Shown here: positions 17,614 to 30,792 of the stretch, piece after piece | Numbering within the stretch: the stretch's first letter is position 1 | Layout of the letters: every line of letters starts with the position of its first letter | Assembly (NCBI GenBank): GCA_963662335.2 | Contig: CAXXVD010000002.1 | Coordinates: 32,001-96,000, forward strand | Source: Chloroflexota bacterium | GTDB taxonomy: Bacteria > Chloroflexota > UBA11872 > VXOZ01 | Direction of reading: 5' to 3' | Length of the DNA: 64,000 bases | Notes under the pieces: model-generated | Told to the model about the DNA's origin: nothing | Databases searched by the model: none | Seen by the model: only the letters and a program-made list of their open reading frames with translations | Program-made: the position numbers and the translations under genes

Positions 17614-19053
17614 GTGAGCAAGGCCAAGAGCGTCTTCGTCTGCGAACAGTGCGGCCACGAATCCCCCAAGTGGGCCGGCCAGTGTCCCTCGTGCCAAAGC
17701 TGGAACAGCTTGGTGGAGAGCGTGCAGCGCGAGGCGGCCCCGCGCGGACGGGGCGTCGGCGCGCGCTCGCCCGCCGGCGCGACCCAGGCCCGCAAGCTCC
17801 AGGATATAGCCCCGACCGACCTCATCCGCATTCCGGTGCCCATCGGCGAACTCCACCGCGTGCTGGGCGGCGGCCTGGTGCCGGGCAGCGCCGTGCTCCT
17901 CGCCGGTGACCCGGGCATCGGCAAGTCTACGCTCCTGCTCCAGTTTGCGATCGCGTTGGCGCACGCCGACCGGCCGGTGCTCTACGTTTCCGGCGAGGAG
18001 AGCGCGGGCCAGATTCGCCTGCGCGCCTCGCGGCTCGGTCTCGAGCCGCAGGAACTCTACGTGCTCGCCGAAATCGGCCTGGAGGACGTTCTGGACGCCA
18101 TCGCGCAGGTGCGGCCCGGGCTGGTCATCATCGACTCGATTCAGACCCTGGTGAGCGCGGAACTTAGCGGCGTGCCGGGCAGCATCGGCCAGGTGCGCGA
18201 GTGCGCCTCACAGTTGGTGGCGTTGGCCAAGCAGACGGGCGTCACCCTCTTCCTGGTCGGCCACGTGACCAAAGAGGGGTCCGTGGCCGGGCCGAAGACC
18301 CTGGAGCACATGGTGGACACCGTGCTCGCCTTGGCCGGCGACCAGCACCACAACTATCGCATTCTCAAGGCCACCAAGAACCGCTTTGGCTCCACCAACG
18401 AGGTGGGCATCTTCGCCATGCAGGAGCGGGGACTGGTGGAGGTTCCCAACCCCTCGGCGGCCTTTCTGGCGGAGCGGGAGCCGAATCCGGGCTCTGCCAT
18501 TGCCGTGCCGCTGGAAGGCTCGCGTCCGCTGCTGGTGGAGGTGCAGGCGCTGGTGACGTACAGTCCGCTGGCGGTGCCGCGCCGCATGGCCAACGGCTTC
18601 GATCAGAGCCGCCTGCACATGCTGCTGGCGGTGCTCACCAAGCGCGCCGGCGTGCGCCTGGCCGACCAGGACGTATACGTGAATGTGGTCGGCGGTCTGG
18701 AACTGGATGAACCGGCGGTGGACCTGGCAGTCTGCCTGGCGATTGCCTCCAGCGCGGCGGACGTGGCGCTGCCGGGCGATCTGGTCGCCCTGGGCGAGGT
18801 GGGCCTGGCCGGTGAACTGCGCAGCGTCTTCAAGCTGGAAGAGCGCGCGCAGGAAGCGGCGCGGCGCGGCTATAATCGGGTGCTCCTGCCGCGCGCGAGC
18901 AAAATCGGCGCGCTTGGCGCCGCGCGGCCGGCGTTATCCCGCGCCGAGAGCGTGCGGCAGGCGATACGGATTGCGCTGGGCAAAGGGCCGGCCGAGCGCC
19001 GGGAAGAAGGGCGGGAAGCCGCTGCGGCGCGCGCTTCGACAGGCTCAGCGTGA
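17614..19053 (+). CDS. radA: DNA repair protein RadA/Sms
   Basis: C4 zinc finger, GDPGIGKST, KNRFG. Confidence 0.97.
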   Translation: MSKAKSVFVCEQCGHESPKWAGQCPSCQSWNSLVESVQREAAPRGRGVGARSPAGATQARKLQDIAPTDLIRIPVPIGELHRVLGGGLVPGSAVLLAGDPGIGKSTLLLQFAIALAHADRPVLYVSGEESAGQIRLRASRLGLEPQELYVLAEIGLEDVLDAIAQVRPGLVIIDSIQTLVSAELSGVPGSIGQVRECASQLVALAKQTGVTLFLVGHVTKEGSVAGPKTLEHMVDTVLALAGDQHHNYRILKATKNRFGSTNEVGIFAMQERGLVEVPNPSAAFLAEREPNPGSAIAVPLEGSRPLLVEVQALVTYSPLAVPRRMANGFDQSRLHMLLAVLTKRAGVRLADQDVYVNVVGGLELDEPAVDLAVCLAIASSAADVALPGDLVALGEVGLAGELRSVFKLEERAQEAARRGYNRVLLPRASKIGALGAARPALSRAESVRQAIRIALGKGPAERREEGREAAAARASTGSA

Positions 19054-19139
19054 ACGGGCAGGACGACGGCCGGAGTGACGGAACGTAGCGCGGGGGCTTG
19101 TCCCCCGCTGGCGCGAGGAATACGGCGCTCGTGACGGAC

Positions 19140-19835
19140 ATGGCTCTGGCCGCCATCATCGTCGGCGCGGGACGCAGCCGCCGCATGGCGGGGCAGGACA
19201 AGCTCTACGCGCCGCTCGCTGCCGATGGACGGCCGGTGATTGCCGCGACCGTGGCGGTCTTTGAGGCGGCAGCGGCGGTCGCTGCCATCGTCCTCGTCGT
19301 TGCCCCGGAGCGGGTCGCCTACTGCCAGGAACTCGCTCAGAAGCGCGGTTGGCGCAAGATGCGCGCTGTCTGCGCGGGCGGGGCCAGCCGGGGCCACTCG
19401 GTGGCGCGCGGTTTGCAGGCGCTGCAAGACACGTCGGCCGCTTACGTGGCCGTGCACGACGCGGCCCGTCCCTTTGTGACGCCGGCGCTGATCGCCCGCG
19501 TGCTCAGCGCGGCGCAACAACACGGCGCGGCCGTCCCCGGTGTGCCCTGCGCCGATACCATCCGGCGGGTTGACGGCAACGAACGCGCGCTGGAGACGCT
19601 GCCGCGCGACGCCTTGCGCGCGATACAGACGCCCCAGGTCTTCAGCCGCCCGCTGCTGGAGCGCGCCTACGCCGCGCAAGCGGCGAATCTGGATTCGTTT
19701 ACCGACGACGCGGCGGTTGTCGAGGCCGCCGGCGCGCCCGTCTTCGTCGTGCCGGGGGACTATGGTAACATGAAGCTGACCACGCCCCGGGACTTGGCAT
19801 TCGCCCAGTGGCTGGCGCGGAACGTGTCCGCATGA
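19140..19835 (+). CDS. ispD: 2-C-methyl-D-erythritol 4-phosphate cytidylyltransferase
   Basis: GAGRSRRM, VHDAARP, QTPQVF, TDDA, KLTTPRD. Confidence 0.95.
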   Translation: MALAAIIVGAGRSRRMAGQDKLYAPLAADGRPVIAATVAVFEAAAAVAAIVLVVAPERVAYCQELAQKRGWRKMRAVCAGGASRGHSVARGLQALQDTSAAYVAVHDAARPFVTPALIARVLSAAQQHGAAVPGVPCADTIRRVDGNERALETLPRDALRAIQTPQVFSRPLLERAYAAQAANLDSFTDDAAVVEAAGAPVFVVPGDYGNMKLTTPRDLAFAQWLARNVSA

Positions 19836-19864
19836 CGTGAACACACGGAGCAAAGCTAAAGGAG

Positions 19865-20410
19865 ATGGAAGCGGGCGCTCACGAGCGGAAACTGCCCGCA
19901 CTGCGCGTCGGCAGCGGCTACGACGTGCACCGTCTCGTTCCCGGTCGCCCGCTGGTGCTTGGGGGTGTGCGCATCCCGCATGAACAGGGTCTCGCCGGCC
20001 ACTCGGACGCCGACGTGTTGGCCCACGCCATCATGGACGCGCTGCTCGGCGCGGCGGCGCTGCCGGACATCGGACAGCAGTTTCCGCCCGGCGACCCGCG
20101 CTACGCCGGCGCGAATAGCTTGCAATTATTGAACAACGTGCGTAAGCTACTGGCTGAACGGCAGTGGCGCGTCGTCAACGTAGACAGTACAATCGCGGCG
20201 CAAGCGCCGCGGCTGGCGGACTACATACCGGCCATGCGGGACAACGTTGCCCGCGCGTTGAAAGTGGAAAGCGTGAACGTAGGCATAAAAGCCACCACGA
20301 CCGAAGGACTGGACGCCATCGGCGCCGGCCGGGGCATCGCGGCGCACGCCGTGGCCCTGCTGGCGCATGACCCCTCGTTGCAAGACTGCGCGTGTATCAC
20401 GCCCCGCTAG
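19865..20410 (+). CDS. ispF: MECDP synthase
   Basis: GYDVHRL, GHSDADV, DIGQQFP, KATTTEGL. Confidence 0.96.
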   Translation: MEAGAHERKLPALRVGSGYDVHRLVPGRPLVLGGVRIPHEQGLAGHSDADVLAHAIMDALLGAAALPDIGQQFPPGDPRYAGANSLQLLNNVRKLLAERQWRVVNVDSTIAAQAPRLADYIPAMRDNVARALKVESVNVGIKATTTEGLDAIGAGRGIAAHAVALLAHDPSLQDCACITPR

Positions 20411-20421
20411 GGGCCTTTTTT
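20401..20421 (+). terminator. Short intrinsic terminator-like hairpin after ispF
   Basis: GCCCC-GCTA-GGGGC followed by a T-run. Confidence 0.45.
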
Positions 20422-20515
20422 GTGGCGCACGCCGGTTGTCCGCGGTCCGGCGCGCGCGAGTGACGACGGCGGCGCGCCGCGCCGCAACGCAGTGTTGAGA
20501 CGAGGGAAGCAACCT

Positions 20516-21205
20516 ATGAGCATACTCCATACGCTGCGGCAGGACATCGACGCAGCGCTGGAACGCGACCCTGCCGCCCGCAACGTAATCGAAATCGTCT
20601 TGGCCTATCCGGGCGTGCACGCCATCTGGTTCTACCGCCTTACGCGCGCCCTGTGGCAGGCGGGCGTGCCGGTCCTGCCCCGCGTGCTCTCCCATTTTGC
20701 CCGCTTTCTCACCGGCATCGAGATTCACCCGGGCGCGCGGCTGGGCCCGGGCCTCTTCATCGACCACGGCATGGGTGTGGTGATTGGCGAGACCGCGGAA
20801 GTGGGCCGCAACGTGACGCTCTACCAGGGTGTGACCCTGGGCGCGCAGACGCTGCACACCGGCAAGCGCCATCCCACCTTGTGCGACAACGTGGTCGTCG
20901 GCGCGGGCGGCAAGATCCTGGGGCCGGTGACGGTCGGCGAGGGGTGCGTCATTGGGGCCGGGGCCGTGGTTGTCAACGATGTGCCGCCCCACGCCACCGT
21001 GGTGGGCGTGCCGGGCCACGTGGTCGCCATGCGCGACCCGCACACCGGCGAAAGCGCGCGCGTGGTGCAGCCGGACCCCATGGCGGAAGCGCTCTACGCC
21101 TTGCAGAAGCGCGTCGTAGACTTGGAAGCGCGGTTGGCCCGCTTCGAGAATGAAGAACCGCCGCCGCAGCGCGAGGAGATGCTGGAGAAGTGCCGTGACG
21201 CTTAG
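20516..21205 (+). CDS. cysE: Serine O-acetyltransferase
   Basis: [34 protein letters not shown]. Confidence 0.95.
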
Positions 21206-22643
21206 TATTTCCAATACCCTTGGCGGCCAACGAGAGCCGTTCACGCCCCTGGACGGCAAGCGCGTCAAGATGTACGTCTGTGGCATGACGCCCAAGCGCG
21301 AACCGCACATTGGCCACGCCCGCCTCTTCGTCGCCATGGACATGATCCGCCGATACCTCTCCTACCGCGGCTACGAAGTCCACCACGTGCAGAACATCAC
21401 CGACGTGGACGATAAGATCATCGATGCGGCGGAACGCGAGGGCGTGACGCCGGCTGAAGTGGCGCAGATGTACACCGACGCCTACGACGCGGTGATGGGC
21501 AACCTGAACGTCCTGCGCGCGCACGAAGTGCCCAAGGTTACCGAGACCCTGCCGCAGATCATTGCGATGATCGAAGGCTTGATCGAAAAAGGCGCGGCGT
21601 ACGCGGCGGCAGAGGCGGTCTACTTCTCGGTGCCGCGTTTCGCCGCCTACGGCGCGCTCTCCACCCGCACCGAGGAGAGCGGCGTCCAAGCCGGGGCCTC
21701 CGGGCGCGTGGACGATGAGCCGGGCAAGCGCGACCCCCGCGACTTCGCCCTCTGGAAACCGGCCAAGCCGGGTGAACCCTGGTGGCAAAGCCCCTGGGGG
21801 CAGGGACGCCCCGGCTGGCACATCGAGTGCAGCACGATGATCTACGAGACGCTGGGCGCGCAGATCGACATTCACGGCGGCGGCGCCGACCTCATCTTTC
21901 CCCACCATGAGAACGAGATCGCCCAGAGCGAGGCCTTTACGGGCAAACGTCCCTTCACGAAATACTGGCTGCACACCGGCCTGCTGACCATCGACGGCCA
22001 GAAGATGGCCCATTCCCTGGGCAACTTCATCACGATCGAAGACATTCTGGAAGAATACAGCGGCCCGGCGCTGCGGCTCTACCTGCTCTCCGTGCACTAC
22101 CGCTCACCCCTGACCTACACACCGGAGAGTCTGGAACAGGCGCGGGCGGGCCTGGCGCGGCTGACCGGCGCGCTGCGGGTAGAAGCGGACGGCGACGCCA
22201 GGGAGGCAGATCAAGACCGGGTCGGCGACGCCATAGATGAGAGCGCGGACGCCGTACTCGCGCACGCGGCCTACCAGGCGGAAACCGGCTTCTTCAGCGC
22301 CATGGATAGCGACTTCAATTCGGCCGGCGCGCTCGGCCACCTCTACCAACTGGTGCGCGAAATCAACCGCGTGGGGCCGGCCGCCGAGCCGGAGATTCTG
22401 TATCAGGCCCAGCAAACGTTGGTACGCCTGGCCGACGTCCTGGGCATCGACCTGCAAGAGACGCTGGAAGAGGAGATGCAAACCGACGCCGCCGAGTTCA
22501 TCGATCTGCTCGTGGAACTGCGCGCCGACCTGCGCCAGGAGAAGCAGTTCGCGCTGGCGGACAAGGTGCGCGATCAGTTGGCGGCGCTCGGCATTGCCCT
22601 GGAGGATTCGCCCGGCGGCACGGTCTGGCGGCGGAAGGCGTAG
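21195..22643 (+). CDS. cysS: Cysteine--tRNA ligase
   Basis: [37 protein letters not shown]; KMSKS loop reads KMAHS. Confidence 0.96.
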
Positions 22644-24418: not shown

Positions 24419-24442
24419 GGCTGCCCTACCCAGGAAGCGCGC

Positions 24443-24652
24443 CTACTCGCCGCCGGGCTGCGGCGTGGGATCGGGCACTTCGCGAATGATGCGCCGGATC
24501 TCCTCGTCCAGATCGTCGGTCTCGGTCTTTTCCGGCGCTTCCGTGGGCGTTTTCGTCGGCGCTTCCGTGCCCGCCCGCGCCGGACGCAGACCGCGCCCCG
24601 CCGCGCCGGCGGCGGGTTCCGTCCGCGCTTCGTTTCCAGCATACCACGTCAC
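24443..24652 (-). CDS. Pup-like small protein modifier, 69 aa, C-terminal GGE
   Basis: GTG overlaps the dop TGA (GTGA), AAGGAGG RBS 6 nt upstream; MTWYAGNE...TETDDLDEEIRRIIREVPDPTPQPGGE; lies between dop and pafA. Confidence 0.85.
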   Translation of the reverse strand: MTWYAGNEARTEPAAGAAGRGLRPARAGTEAPTKTPTEAPEKTETDDLDEEIRRIIREVPDPTPQPGGE

Positions 24653-26208
24653 GTGCCGCCTCCTTTGTGCGTTAACCGGTGGAGTTCCTCGATCGTCTGA
24701 CACGCATCCACCATAGCCTGTTGCCGCGCCACCGTCTCGCCCCAGAGTTCGGGCAGGGCGAGGGTGAAGGACGCGCCGTTGTGTTGGAACGTAATCGACC
24801 CCCACTCCATGGCGCTGACGTGGGGCGCGAACTTGGCGAGACAGGCCGCGCGCACGCCGGCGCGGGTGTCCGCCGGCGCGGTGGTCTCGGCCCGCTCGAC
24901 GTCGTCGTCCGTGACGATACGCCGCATCCGCCCCGCGCGCGCGAGCATGTGGTAGAGGCTCACCGCCGGGTCTACCAGGTGGTAGGCCACGTCCAGCCGC
25001 AGCGCCGCCGGGTCGTCCCAATCGATGCGCTCCCCGCCGCCGATCTGGGCGAAGAGCGCCAGCTTGGCCGCCCAGTCCACGCGGTCGCGCAGTTTTGCCG
25101 CCGCGTTCGCCTCCAGCAGGTCCAGCGCCGCGCCCCACTCGTCCAGCACCCAATCGGTCTCGGCGTCGCGGCCGCGGTAGCGCAAGGCGGCTTCCCAGTA
25201 ATGGCGCTGCACGTCCACGGCGCGGACAGTCGTGCCGTCGGCCAGCGCCAGCGGCCGCGTGCATTCCAGATCGCGGGAGACCGTGCGCAGCGCGTGCACC
25301 GGGTGTTGCAGTTGCAAACGCGGGGCCGCGCCTTCCTCCACCAGGTCGAGCATCAAGGCCGTGGCCCCCACGCGCAGGGCCGTGGCGAACTCGCTGCAAT
25401 TGGCGTCGCCGATGATCACGTGCAGACGGCGGTACTTCTGCGCGTTGGCGTGGGGCTCGTCGCGGGTGTTGAAGATCGGGCGCTGGGTGGTGGTATTGAT
25501 GCCTACCTCGGTCTCGAAGAAGTCCGCCCGTTGACTGATCTGAAAACCGCCCTGGCGCCCGTTTCTCGTCTCATGCGTGGAGTGCGCTTCATAGGCAGAC
25601 TGGCTTTCGTGCGCCGCCTTGCCCGCGCCGGCGTAGATTTGGCGGGTGACGAAGAACGGGATGCAGGCGCCGATCAGGTCGTCCAGCGGCACGGCGCGGC
25701 TGACGAGATAGTTCTCGTGGCAGCCGTAACTGCGCCCGTGATAGTCAGTGTTGTTCTTGACCAGGCGCACCCGGTCGGGCTGGCCGGTGGCGGCGTTGCG
25801 CGCCTGCTGCGCCCGCCAGACCACGCGCTCGCCGGCCTTGTCGTGGGCCACCAGGTCGCGGAGGGAGAGGCAGGCGTCCGTGCAGTATTCCGGGTGGTTG
25901 TGGTCGTTGTAGAAGCGCGCGCCGTTGGCCAGCACGGTGTCGGCCAGGAGTTCCTGCCGGCTGAGGCGCTGGCTCTTGGCGGTGTTCTCCGTGCGCAGGT
26001 CGTGCGGGTCTTGATCCAGGCGCGCGACCCGCGTGCCGCGCAAGTCCAGCCGCGGGTCCTCGGCGGCGTAGTCCCAGCCGCGAAAGTTTTGCCCCGCCAG
26101 CGGCGCGCTGCGCACGAGCATCGCGGCCTCGTAGGCAAAGTCCACCGCCTGCGCGCTGTTGGCGCAAATCATGCCGTACTCGGTTTCGATGCCTACGGGT
26201 CGATTCAT
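24649..26208 (-). CDS. dop: Depupylase/deamidase Dop family
   Basis: GIETEYG, Dop loop WDYAAEDPRLDLRG, NGARFYNDHNHPEY, KNNTD...GCHENY, SQRADFFE, NTRDEPHA, RRLHVIIGDAN. Confidence 0.92.
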   Translation of the reverse strand: MNRPVGIETEYGMICANSAQAVDFAYEAAMLVRSAPLAGQNFRGWDYAAEDPRLDLRGTRVARLDQDPHDLRTENTAKSQRLSRQELLADTVLANGARFYNDHNHPEYCTDACLSLRDLVAHDKAGERVVWRAQQARNAATGQPDRVRLVKNNTDYHGRSYGCHENYLVSRAVPLDDLIGACIPFFVTRQIYAGAGKAAHESQSAYEAHSTHETRNGRQGGFQISQRADFFETEVGINTTTQRPIFNTRDEPHANAQKYRRLHVIIGDANCSEFATALRVGATALMLDLVEEGAAPRLQLQHPVHALRTVSRDLECTRPLALADGTTVRAVDVQRHYWEAALRYRGRDAETDWVLDEWGAALDLLEANAAAKLRDRVDWAAKLALFAQIGGGERIDWDDPAALRLDVAYHLVDPAVSLYHMLARAGRMRRIVTDDDVERAETTAPADTRAGVRAACLAKFAPHVSAMEWGSITFQHNGASFTLALPELWGETVARQQAMVDACQTIEELHRLTHKGGGT

Positions 26209-26283: not shown

Positions 26284-26584
26284 CGTCATTCCCGCGCACG
26301 CGGGAATCTATCTTCGCCTTGATTGCGGAAACCCACCTTGGCCGCGCAAGCGGGATTCCACCTTTGCCGCGTTCCCGATGGATTCCCGCGTGCGCGGGAA
26401 TGACGGTCCGAAGTCGCCCCCCACTCTCAATTACACATGCGGCCTCGCCCATACTTGGGCGGCCTCGCGGAGCTTTGGCGAATCCGCCTACGCAGCGCTA
26501 TTTTCTAGTATAGCAAGCCGCAGCGCCGTTGGGTCCCCGCGCGCGGCGACACTGCGTAGGGGCACGACATGTCGTGCCCCTACG
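26284..26584. repeat. Inverted pair of ATTCCC-N8-GGGAAT repeats plus a GTAG-type REP
   Basis: CGTCATTCCCGCGCACGCGGGAATC...GATTCCCGCGTGCGCGGGAATGACG; CGTAGGGGCACGACATGTCGTGCCCCTACG. Confidence 0.8.
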
Positions 26585-26661
26585 CGTTGGACTCCAGCGC
26601 GCGCGGGCGATACGCTAGAGGGCGCGCTTCCGTGACGGTAGGCGAACCGGGAGACAACGGC

Positions 26662-27633
26662 ATGACCCTGCGCGAACTCTACGAAACGGCCATCGAAATC
26701 GGCCGCGAGGTTGATCCTCGTGGGCGCGCGGCGCTCGACCGGCAGCTTGAAGCGCGGCGGCGGGAATTCGCCACGCTGCCGGCGTGGCGCACACCCTACT
26801 ACGACCGCGAGCGCTTCACCAATCCCTACGGCGACGTGCGCATCGTGAACGGCCCGGCGGACACCGAACTCGATACCATATTGCTGGGCATAAACATCTG
26901 GACCCAGGAACTCCTGCTGGCAGACCACCTGCGGGGCAACGGCACGCGGGTCGACGCGGTGATTTCCCACCATACCAACGGCATCGGCGTGCCGACGGAC
27001 ACCCTCATCTACGACTCGGTGCCCTATCTGGTGGACCTGCTCGCAAGCGCCGGCGTAGCCCGCGCCGACGCCGAACCGCATATCGACGCTATGATGACCG
27101 AACGCTGGCTCGCCGTCGAGGACGCCAACCGCATCGGCCGGGATACGGCAAAATTGCTTGGCTTTCCCCTGGCCTGCATCCATACACCGGCGGACTTTCA
27201 CCACGGCATCGGCGTGCGCGGCGCGATTGAGGCCGCCAACGCGCGGACGGTCGGCGACGTGGTGGAGGCGCTGCTGGCGCTGCCGGAGTTTCAAGGCGCG
27301 GCGCGCATTGGCGCCATCCCGCGCATCATGGCCGGCGACGCCGCCCAACCGGCCGGCCGCATCTTCCACCAGGACGGCGGCGGCTGGCTTTTTCCGGCGG
27401 ACGTGATGCCGTTGCTCAAAGATGCCGGCGTCGGCACGTTCGTCACCATCGGCTGTTCGCCCGCCCACCAACGAAAGGCTGAGGAACTCGGCATGAACTG
27501 GGTGCGCATGCCCCACGGCGCGTGCGACAACGTGGGCCTCAACCTACTGCTCGATAAGGTGGAACAGCGCCTGGGGCCGCTGAACGTGATCGCCTGCAAC
27601 TACTTCGAGCGGATCACGCGCAATGGCAACTGA
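26662..27633 (+). CDS. NIF3-like (NGG1p-interacting factor) metalloprotein, paralog 1
   Basis: DPRG, NPYGDVRI, ISHH, CIHTPAD, HGACDNVGLN. Confidence 0.78.
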   Translation: MTLRELYETAIEIGREVDPRGRAALDRQLEARRREFATLPAWRTPYYDRERFTNPYGDVRIVNGPADTELDTILLGINIWTQELLLADHLRGNGTRVDAVISHHTNGIGVPTDTLIYDSVPYLVDLLASAGVARADAEPHIDAMMTERWLAVEDANRIGRDTAKLLGFPLACIHTPADFHHGIGVRGAIEAANARTVGDVVEALLALPEFQGAARIGAIPRIMAGDAAQPAGRIFHQDGGGWLFPADVMPLLKDAGVGTFVTIGCSPAHQRKAEELGMNWVRMPHGACDNVGLNLLLDKVEQRLGPLNVIACNYFERITRNGN

Positions 27634-28103: not shown

Positions 28104-29123
28104 ATGGTAACCCTACGCGGTTTGTATGAAACGTCCATCGCGATTGGGCGCGCACTGGATCCCAGGGGCCAGGCGGCCATCGAGGGCCAACTGCGGCAGC
28201 GCCGCGACGAGTACGCCGCGCTGCCGGCCTGGGAGCAAGCGCTCTACGATCAGGAGCGCTTCCGCAACCCGTATGGCGACGTGCGCATTGCCCACGGCCC
28301 GGCGGATACGCCCATCCAAACCGCGCTGGTCGGCATCAACATCCACGTGCCGGAGATGCTGCTGGGCGCGCACTTGGCCGCCAAAGGCACGCGCATCGAC
28401 GCTTTCATTTCCCACCACACGAACAGCGTCGGCGTCTCCGCCTCGCTGGTGGCAGACTTCATGGAGATCAACGCCGACTATCTCATCTGGGAAGGTGTGC
28501 CGGAGGATGAAGCGCGGGCGTCCATCTTCGACTACATGGCGGAGCGCCTGCAAGCGCACGAGGACATGCACCGCATCGGCCCCGACACCGCCAGGCTGCT
28601 GGGCTATCCGCTGGCCTGCATCCACACGCCGGTTGACCTGGCGCACCGCCAGTACATCAACGCGCTCTTGGCACGGGGGAAGCCTGAGACCGTCGGCGAC
28701 ATCGTCGAAGTGATGCTGACGCTGCCGGAGATGCAAGAAGCCGCCCACATCGGCGCATGGCCGCGCGTCATGGTTGGCGACGCGGCGCAACCCGCCGGCC
28801 GCATCCACGCAAAATTCGCCGGCGGCTACGCCTATCCGCCCAGCGCCTATCCGCTGCTGGCGCGGGCGGGCGTGAACACCGTGGTGCAGGTCTCGGCGTC
28901 GGCGGCCACGGTGGACGCCTGCCGCGCGCACGGCATCGCCCTGGTGCGCCTGCCCCACTACGCCACCGACAATATCGGCCAGAACCTGCTGCTGGACGAA
29001 CTGATGCGCCGCCTGGCGCCGTTCAACGTGATTCCCTGCAACTACTTCGGCCGGGTGGACCGGGCGGGCGACTTGGCCAAGTTGCTGGCGGCAGGGCCGA
29101 TCATCAGGAGTCTCCGTCACTAG
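28104..29123 (+). CDS. NIF3-like metalloprotein, paralog 2
   Basis: Collinear with 26662-27633: DPRG, NPYGDVRI, ISHH, CIHTP, HYATDNIG. Confidence 0.78.
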   Translation: MVTLRGLYETSIAIGRALDPRGQAAIEGQLRQRRDEYAALPAWEQALYDQERFRNPYGDVRIAHGPADTPIQTALVGINIHVPEMLLGAHLAAKGTRIDAFISHHTNSVGVSASLVADFMEINADYLIWEGVPEDEARASIFDYMAERLQAHEDMHRIGPDTARLLGYPLACIHTPVDLAHRQYINALLARGKPETVGDIVEVMLTLPEMQEAAHIGAWPRVMVGDAAQPAGRIHAKFAGGYAYPPSAYPLLARAGVNTVVQVSASAATVDACRAHGIALVRLPHYATDNIGQNLLLDELMRRLAPFNVIPCNYFGRVDRAGDLAKLLAAGPIIRSLRH

Positions 29124-29262: not shown

Positions 29263-30792
29263 TTAGCTCTCTTTCGCGGCGGACCAGCCGGTAGCAACGT
29301 CGTCGAACACTTCCGTGATCTTTTCAGACGGCGCGGCCGTAAGCAGCGTGACGACCACGGCGATGGGAATGGCCATCACGATCCCCGGCGTGGCCGGTTG
29401 GATGTCCATGATGCCGCCGGGGCCGCCGGAGAAGTAGCCCCAAATCGAGGCGATCGCCGTGCCGGAGAGCATCGACGCCAGCGCGCCCCAGAAGTTGAAG
29501 CGCCGCCAGTAGAGCGCCAGCAGGATCAGCGGGCCGAAGGCCGCGCCCATGCCGCCCCAGGCGTAGGAAACCAGGTTGTAGACCGAATCGGGGTTGAAGA
29601 TGGACAGGAGCGCCGCGATCAGCCCGACCACCACCAGCAGGAAGCGGCCCAGCCACACCCGCGCGAATGCCCCCATTATGAAAACGTAGCGCTTGGCGTA
29701 GGCATAGCGCTTGACGATGGGCAAATCGTCGGTGGCCATGGCCGAGGCCAGGAGCAGTTGCGAGTCCGCCGTGCTCATGACGGCGGCAATCACCGCCGAG
29801 AGCAGCACGCCCGCTATGACGGGCGGAAAGAATACGGTGGCGGTCACAAGATAGAGGCGCTCCGCGTCCGCCGTCACCTCCTCCATCCGCCCCACCTCGG
29901 CCAGGGCGGGCAAGGCCACCAGGCCCAGCACCAGGCCGAACACGAAGATCAGCAGCGTCCACAGCGTGCTGATGTCGCGGCTGGGCCGGATGCGCTCTTC
30001 GCTCTCCACCGCCATGAAGCGCTGCAAGAAGCGCAGCGAGCCAAAGCTGCCCAAACCCCATCCGGCCGCCGAGAGCAGGAACGTGACGGTGATGCCCTCG
30101 CCCGCCGCGTCGGTGAAGGGATTCCAAAAGCCGGGGGCCATGTCCTCGAAGCCCTGAAACGGATCGGCGGTGAGGAAGATCAACGTGAGCGGCAGGATGA
30201 TGAAACCGCCCAGCATGATGAGCGCCTGGAAGACGTCGGTGCGGGAAACGGCCAGAAAACCGCCGATGAACGTGTAGGACGCCACCGCCACCAGTGTCAC
30301 CAGGATGCCCACGATGCCGTCCAGGCCGAAGACCGTCTCCAACAGCTTGGAACCGGCAATCAAGCCGGAACTGATGTAGAAGATGATGAAGAAAAGGGCG
30401 ATGGCGCAGGAAAGGGTGCGCAGCACGCCCCGTTCGTCCCCAAAGCGCTTCTCGAAGAACTCCGGGAAGGTGAGGGAGTTGTCCGCGGCGATGGTGTAGC
30501 GGCGCAGGCGCTTGGCGTAGATCGCCCACGTCAACCAGACGCCGAGCACGAGGCTCAGCACGGTCCAAAACTCGATGGCGCCGTTGGTGAACGCCAGGGC
30601 CGGAAAGACCAGCATCGTCCAGCCGCTGGCGGTCGACGAACCGGAACTCAACGCCGAGGTAAAACTGCCCACACGCCGCCCGGCCAGCACGTAGTCCGAC
30701 ATCTCCTGCATCTGGCGGCTGCGAAAGACCGCAATGCCAATCAGCGCCGCGAAATACGCCAGGAAGACGATGAGCACCCACGTGGTCAACAT
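29263..30792 (-). CDS. putP: Sodium/proline symporter (SSS family)
   Basis: DYVLAGR, SALSSGSSTASGW, AAVMSTADSQLL, VSYAWGGMGAAFGP. Confidence 0.88.
   Translation of the reverse strand: MLTTWVLIVFLAYFAALIGIAVFRSRQMQEMSDYVLAGRRVGSFTSALSSGSSTASGWTMLVFPALAFTNGAIEFWTVLSLVLGVWLTWAIYAKRLRRYTIAADNSLTFPEFFEKRFGDERGVLRTLSCAIALFFIIFYISSGLIAGSKLLETVFGLDGIVGILVTLVAVASYTFIGGFLAVSRTDVFQALIMLGGFIILPLTLIFLTADPFQGFEDMAPGFWNPFTDAAGEGITVTFLLSAAGWGLGSFGSLRFLQRFMAVESEERIRPSRDISTLWTLLIFVFGLVLGLVALPALAEVGRMEEVTADAERLYLVTATVFFPPVIAGVLLSAVIAAVMSTADSQLLLASAMATDDLPIVKRYAYAKRYVFIMGAFARVWLGRFLLVVVGLIAALLSIFNPDSVYNLVSYAWGGMGAAFGPLILLALYWRRFNFWGALASMLSGTAIASIWGYFSGGPGGIMDIQPATPGIVMAIPIAVVVTLLTAAPSEKITEVFDDVATGWSAAKES

Follow-up and report, generated by a model that had tools for sequence, protein, structure and literature searches.

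A candidate third sequence family of Pup-type modifier encoded between dop and pafA homologues in Chloroflexota

A 69-residue protein encoded between homologues of dop and pafA is, on our reading, a Pup-type modifier of a third sequence family, previously uncatalogued. The gene lies in a 64,000-nucleotide stretch of a Chloroflexota genome (hereafter the window), where a preliminary description of this DNA had proposed it as a hidden ORF. Work on pupylation has dealt almost exclusively with its part in feeding the actinobacterial proteasome; in Nitrospirota, Armatimonadota, Poribacteria and others the place of Pup is taken by UBact. By analogy with Pup, it is likely that the protein described here would be ligated by PafA through the side chain of its terminal Glu and removed by Dop. 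A wider statement is held more tentatively, just short of what we would call probable: that this is a third independent-looking tag family, with a proline-rich tail in place of helix 2, distributed in about 90 Chloroflexota species with no Mpa or proteasome, and that it may serve for reversible non-degradative tagging or be read by another receptor.

The features of the locus are listed in Table 1. Translation of the minus strand across the gene gives the stop-free 69-residue sequence VTWYAGNEARTEPAAGAAGRGLRPARAGTEAPTKTPTEAPEKTETDDLDEEIRRIIREVPDPTPQPGGE*, running from VTWYAGNE at the N-terminus to TEAPTKTPTEAPEKTETDDLDEEIRRIIREVPDPTPQPGGE at the C-terminus, and the same frame is present in relatives, so that the hidden ORF of the preliminary description is borne out. 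Its description of the start also agrees with the coordinates: the GTG overlaps the dop stop codon (GTGA) and stands behind an AAGGAGG ribosome-binding site. This GTG is the sole in-frame start past the dop stop in the window. AAGGAGG, or a motif one base off, occurs at the same place in the loci of all 16 same-genus relatives, and the same-genus copies always begin with a GTG or ATG that overlaps the dop stop behind the Shine-Dalgarno sequence. The modifier stop is separated from the pafA start by 25 nt in the window, against 246-674 nt in same-genus relatives (for example L039 4226-4860). No convincing ORF was seen in the long spacer of these relatives. Its translations contain motifs that are typical of short palindromic intergenic repeats, and a repeat element may have been inserted inside the operon.

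Table 1. Features of the modifier locus in the window (positions in nucleotides of the 64,000-nucleotide stretch)
Feature	Position	Strand	Remarks
radA, ispD, ispF, cysE (serine acetyltransferase-like), cysS	17614-22643	+	Housekeeping genes downstream of pafA and convergent on it
pafA homologue, 499 aa	22919-24418	-	Presumed ligase; PF03136, E 5e-105
Modifier-pafA spacer	24419-24442		
Putative Pup-type modifier gene, 69 aa	24443-24652	-	Stop TAG 24445-24443
(E/D)AP.KP island and T/E/P-rich repeat	24530-24570	-	Residues 28-41 of the modifier
GTG start of the modifier gene	24652-24650	-	Overlaps the dop stop
TGA stop of the dop homologue	24651-24649	-	
Shine-Dalgarno AAGGAGG	24659-24665	-	6 nt upstream of the modifier GTG
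dop homologue, 532 aa	24649-26247	-	Presumed depupylase/deamidase; PF03136, E 6e-151
Two paralogous genes with a mutual identity of about 50%	26569-27633 and 28104-29123	+	Just upstream of dop; no Pfam match
putP, PutP-type sodium/proline symporter	29263-30792	-	Further upstream of dop

The ORF is a real gene that lies in conserved synteny and is under strong purifying selection. Of 41 genomes from the window's class, 40 gave a dop homologue, and these include the genome of the window itself. The same frame follows dop directly in all 30 loci fetched through Dop (29 by tblastn and L027 by reading frames), a set that includes the window's own genome (L003). A scan with the pattern RI[IV]RE[VI]PDP in one genome per species returned 96 stretches, 67 of which encode a relative of the modifier, and all 67 relatives sit between a dop match and a pafA match. 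These 67 loci have the pattern in common by construction, and searches that do not depend on it were therefore also used. With a family profile, 98 species genomes of the class were searched and one copy was detected in each of 89, which represent five of the six families of the class. When 1.84 billion representative proteins were searched exhaustively with HMMER, 25 were returned at E<=0.001. Of these, 23 were read, leaving out P0012 and P0044 (2,246 aa, matching over only 15 profile positions); all belong to the modifier family and none is Pup or UBact. PGG[EQ] ends 21 of these 23 homologues, and the other two are truncated or frame-shifted copies.

The pattern of substitution bears on whether the ORF could have arisen by chance in GC-rich DNA, or could be an untranslated spacer serving translational coupling of dop and pafA. 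Such a reading would agree with the many long spurious ORFs that the high GC content produces here, and with codons 8-33, which drift almost freely within the genus (21, 23 and 26 variable columns at codon positions 1, 2 and 3). However, change within the genus is nearly confined to third positions in the tail codons (2, 0 and 23 variable columns) and in the TEAPT island (4, 1 and 12), and 65 distinct sequences of the last 26 codons have 13, 7 and 26 variable columns at the three positions. The frame survives length differences among relatives (69, 74 and 78 aa), a strong Shine-Dalgarno motif and a unique start are present, and the protein motif is kept across families whose DNA has diverged so far that Dop is only 47-58% identical. 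The overlapping frame at 24426-24647 contains stops in 51 of 67 relatives. On frame conservation in relatives, third-position change and these stops we rejected a chance ORF or spacer, which we regard as scarcely credible. The preliminary description had staked its claim on the frame that ends in GGE rather than on 24426-24647; that frame is the conserved one in all 30 and all 67 loci, and the terminal G-E/Q is also kept, the terminus being always G-G-E or G-G-Q.

The modifier is composed of a variable, disordered N-terminal half, a conserved (E/D)AP.KP island, an amphipathic helix (DDLDEEIRRIIREV) and the invariant tail PDPTPQPGGE. An acidic D-[DE]-L-[DG]-E stretch lies upstream of the tail. 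The final 16 residues, RI[IV]RE[IV]PDPTPQPGG[E/Q], hardly vary over 76 distinct tails of 45 residues (R 74, I 76, I/V, R 76, E 74, I/V, P 76, D 72, P 76, T 74, P 76, Q 76, P 76, G 76, G 76). All 76 close with GG[EQ], and the final residue is Glu in 60 and Gln in 16. Counted by locus, 42 of the 67 encode GGE, as the window does, and 25 encode GGQ. Five of the last 10 residues are prolines. The fold predicted for the protein alone has a single helix at residues 44-55, at low confidence (mean pLDDT 60), and the helical hydrophobic moment peaks at residues 47-62. From these predictions the protein would be disordered except for one amphipathic helix, and its tail contains too much proline to be helical. 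One helix followed by a proline-rich tail, instead of a second helix, had been anticipated in the preliminary description, and this arrangement fits the lone fold, the hydrophobic moment and the complex model presented below. The helix may be homologous to helix 1 of Pup.

The (E/D)AP.KP island is followed by a T/E/P-rich repeat, and this segment is under purifying selection within the genus. There is no confident contact between the island and PafA in the complex model. The island could be a site for a reader.

Both enzymes of the locus look intact from their sequences. The Dop homologue scores higher with the Dop model TIGR03688 (436 bits) than with the PafA model TIGR03686 (358 bits), and the PafA homologue higher with TIGR03686 (293 bits) than with TIGR03688 (252 bits), all four scores lying below the actinobacterial equivalog cut-offs. 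Residues 14-522 of the Dop homologue align from end to end with Dop of Acidothermus (5lrt, E 1.5e-101), and the Dop-loop Trp and the DHxHPEY motif are kept. The PafA homologue aligns with Corynebacterium PafA (4b0t, E 3e-61); it is devoid of a Dop-loop and keeps GTEIEY and the Asp of YLDxGH. A tree of Dop and PafA was built with 31 rows, using one UBact system and one Pup system as outgroups. Dop is split from PafA at 100/100 support. The modifier-linked Dop and the modifier-linked PafA each form one 100/100 clade, with long stems of 0.5 and 0.85. Both clades exclude the UBact-linked enzymes of genome G017, and the Dop side also excludes the Pup-linked Dop of Nonomuraea. The tree names no donor, because there is one outgroup of each kind. 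Two rows labeled as Dop (L055_Dop and L072_Dop) are actually PafA, since dop is cut off at the contig end in these loci; they sit in the PafA clade and have no bearing on the Dop result. As far as these sequences go, the clades show enzymes that diverged together with the tag.

Modeling of the complex with PafA, which the preliminary description had called for, was carried out in three runs with an alignment of PafA, an alignment of modifier residues 28-69, ATP and Mg. The complex scored 0.82 (median of three runs) against 0.01 for the best control. Among solved complexes 58 of 80 attain this mark, and among mismatched pairs 2 of 110; these counts are only rough for the present case because our own alignments and ligands were supplied. 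Agreement of contacts among the three runs is at least 82%, and the pLDDT of the partner is at least 66. In the model, L48, E51, I52, I55, I56 and all residues from E58 to E69 of the modifier make confident contacts with PafA residues 11, 13-17, 66-69, 108, 115-124, 212 and 332-371, including E11, D66, G68, H69, D115, T120, G122 and H124, which are invariant in the PafA alignment. The helix and the proline-rich tail are thus placed on PafA, with the tail reaching active-site residues. A PafA-Pup complex has been solved (4bjr), and the score may in part come from the model having memorized that groove. The placement agrees with the published picture of Pup, which occupies a long groove and has its C-terminus at the active site (PMC8599861). 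The model supports binding of the modifier by PafA.

A link of the family to Pup or UBact was given by none of the sequence methods, and the case consequently rests on context, terminus and one model. The modifier has no match at E<=1 in Pfam and NCBIfam. When 16 family members were compared with the Pup models PF05639 and TIGR03687 and the UBact models PF20513 and NF033388, none matched at E<=10, and whole-genome scans with Pup and UBact models did not match the window ORF. The positive control, the UBact of G017, scores 76.8 bits on the UBact model. A profile search of PDB sequences gave no matches at E<=10, and a search of the ESM Atlas gave no usable match. With hhalign, the family has a probability of 0.24 against UBact and 0.75 against Pup; no homology conclusion is drawn from these values, because the control comparison of UBact with Pup itself reaches only 0.53 and the method is without power here. 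All 23 homologues in a collection of 5.8 billion proteins carry neither a Pfam domain nor a name, and current annotation pipelines therefore miss the gene. Searches started from UBact and from Pup, in contrast, bring up proteins labeled PF20513 and PF05639. The modifier does not score as an ordinary Pup or UBact, as the preliminary description had expected. It was filed under neither name because the family-defining features of both were looked for and were absent.

Several features are shared with Pup. Both are small disordered proteins encoded directly after dop, with an acidic stretch followed by a helix, a Gly-Gly-Glu/Gln end and a Gln at position -5, and both are paired with one Dop-type and one PafA-type enzyme, the use of the modifier by PafA being modeled. 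They differ in the C-terminal region, where the second helix and the YVQKGG segment of Pup are replaced in the modifier by PDPTPQPGG. Pup has two helices within roughly its final 27 residues, the second before VQKGG, and these dock into the groove of PafA/Dop, whereas one helix is predicted for the modifier. Pup belongs to Actinobacteria and is accompanied by Mpa/ARC and usually by a 20S proteasome, whereas the modifier belongs to Chloroflexota, in genomes where no Mpa/ARC or PrcB was found, and has neither an HMM nor a profile match to Pup. UBact occupies the same place after dop and is of similar length. Also common to both are a P[DE] break after a basic-hydrophobic helix ([KR]R[IM].R), a terminal G-[EQ] and a Gln at -5, and KRIIREIPD of the modifier resembles RRMRRVDPE of UBact by eye. 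However, UBact ends in R[ST]G[EQ] preceded by RRYRQ (consensus RRYRQRSGE), whereas the modifier ends in TPQPGG[EQ] and the RRYRQR segment is absent. The UBact of G017 is part of an mpa-dop-UBact-prcB-prcA-pafA cluster and the modifier of a bare dop-modifier-pafA arrangement. The enzymes that accompany the modifier fall in separate long-stemmed clades.

All 67 loci fetched by the pattern come from Chloroflexota or Chloroflexi MAGs, three of them titled Thermoflexus. In a sample of 401 Chloroflexota genomes, PF03136 was present in 43, all of them in four families of the window's class, and was found in none of the other Chloroflexota families of the sample. UBact was found in one of the 401 genomes (G017), which belongs to the same class as the window and to another family. 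There the cluster mpa (AAA and both OB domains)-dop-UBact-prcB-prcA-pafA is complete (L114 4490-11680, minus strand; G017:C2:57000-71000), and the family profile detects no copy of the new modifier. Three further PafA-like paralogues were observed on other contigs of G017. The Mpa OB-N domain (PF17758) is above cut-off in one of 98 class genomes and the PrcB query matches one of 98, in both cases G017. The genes mpa, prcB and prcA are absent from the window locus, and Mpa and PrcB were not found in 97 of the 98 class genomes, a result of genome searches of MAG-derived assemblies, which a divergent reader or unfoldase would escape. In the window's own genome (96% complete), the best match to the Mpa model TIGR03689 has 144 bits against a cut-off of 505, and PF16450 was not found. 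Since neither an Mpa/ARC-type ATPase nor a PrcB-like 20S subunit was seen in genomes with this modifier, the tag most likely feeds no proteasome; it probably works without one.

The only proteasome-family ORF in the window's genome encodes a distant 242-aa protein on another contig (PF00227, 43.8 bits; L033 1096-1824, plus strand; G000:C3:463592-464317), perhaps an Anbu-type subunit. It was considered as a partner of the modifier and rejected, because only 5 of the 98 class genomes have it and its distribution thus does not follow that of the modifier.

No conserved reader, unfoldase or protease was found around 55 loci of at least 8 kb. Only dop, the modifier gene and pafA are common to all, and the commonest flank clusters encode an ornithine cyclodeaminase (21 of 55 loci) and a MarR protein (18 of 55). 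The two paralogous genes upstream of dop are conserved, among the 67 loci, only in the closest relative, L049 (90% and 84% identity). Antisense ORFs at the same site are less conserved (about 70%) and are probably spurious.

Proteasome-less pupylation is found in Corynebacterium, which has a Pup-type tag with an encoded terminal Glu and has no 20S proteasome. The genome of the window resembles it in the putative Pup-type tag, in the encoded Glu and in showing no PrcB-like 20S subunit. However, Corynebacterium keeps the ARC ATPase and a canonical Pup (a control genome matches PF05639, TIGR03687 and PF17758), while the modifier genomes show no Mpa/ARC-type ATPase and their tag is of a different sequence family.

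The proposed chemistry is taken over from the established Pup pathway (PMC7947786, PMC8599861). The groove of the PafA homologue would bind the amphipathic helix (about residues 44-59), and the tail PDPTPQPGGE would be threaded in extended form into the active site. PafA would then phosphorylate, with ATP, the side-chain carboxylate of the terminal Glu and join this Glu to a lysine of the target protein. Isopeptide conjugation to lysines is thus what we infer by analogy. The bond would be reversed by the Dop homologue, and in relatives with a terminal Gln, Dop would first deamidate it to Glu. The preliminary description had proposed that Dop would act only as a deconjugase, the terminal Glu being encoded. 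This fits the window genome, but does not extend to the 25 of 67 loci that encode GGQ, where by analogy with Pup the deamidase activity of Dop would be needed. The conjugated tag may be a reversible regulatory or quality-control mark, or may be read by some other partner; the invariant 16-residue tail and the (E/D)AP.KP island are candidate reader sites.

Two other explanations accept the gene as real. The modifier may be a very divergent member of UBact (or of Pup) for which the available HMMs are too narrow, inherited by vertical descent from a UBact-proteasome cluster in which mpa and prcBA were afterwards lost. The presence of a full cluster of this kind in G017, a genome of the same class, would suit such a history. 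So would a layout that by eye is common to the three families, namely an acidic run, a helix (with [KR]R[IM].R), a break (P[DE]) and a terminal Q-x-[GS]-G-[EQ], with the endings VQKGGQ in Pup, RQRSGE in UBact and PQPGGE in the modifier. In addition, hhalign misses even the relation of Pup to UBact, and its failure to link the modifier to either means little. However, none of the 16 members tested matches any of the four Pup and UBact models, the family profile recovers only its own kind in 1.84 billion proteins (the 23 matches read), and the R[ST]G[EQ] terminus and the RRYRQR segment are absent. The modifier-linked Dop and PafA also form their 100/100 long-stemmed clades without the G017 enzymes, in a tree whose outgroup sampling is thin. 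Descent from UBact or Pup seems to us unlikely on balance, with a weight that is still appreciable, and the suggestion of the preliminary description that the modifier could form a subfamily distinct from both is supported by the model searches and by a profile search that returns no other kind of protein.

The protein could also remain unconjugated, as a RiPP-like precursor or as a regulatory or adaptor peptide that is modified or bound by two homologues of carboxylate-amine ligases. The invariance of its 16-residue proline-rich C-terminus, which exceeds that of Pup itself, and the failure to find a proteasome, Mpa or other reader would be compatible with such a role. However, the enzymes are clear Dop and PafA orthologue types by their 100/100 clades, with the Dop-loop kept, the alternation of Glu and Gln at the terminus is exactly that of the Pup and UBact alignments, and the flanks have no conserved genes for export, cyclases or proteases of the kind usual in peptide natural-product loci, the best clusters there being those of 21 and 18 of 55 loci. 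With Dop paired with PafA and Glu or Gln at the terminus, an unconjugated role is quite improbable, and a Pup-type modifier of a sequence family of its own remains our preferred reading.

No description of a pupylation, Pup or UBact system in Chloroflexi/Chloroflexota was found in the literature searched, and no biochemistry on UBact was found there; the supplements of PMC7947786 may list more taxa. In the part of Hecht et al. 2020 available to us, Dop/PafA are assigned to Actinobacteria, Nitrospirae, NC10, Armatimonadetes, Verrucomicrobia, Nitrospinae, Firmicutes, Proteobacteria and Planctomycetes, and Chloroflexi are missing from these phyla (PMC7947786). The modifier adds a third sequence type, class-wide in Chloroflexota, in genomes with no detected Mpa or PrcB-like subunit. 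These bacteria offer a natural test of the role of pupylation in the absence of a proteasome, and of how much of the two-helix binding mode of Pup is needed by PafA and Dop. Modified lysines would bear a distinctive remnant of the short, invariant tail, so that targets could be searched for in metaproteomes of communities that contain these uncultured bacteria. If a third family without a proteasome is confirmed, it would represent a reversible, non-degradative protein-tagging system, or one that uses another receptor.
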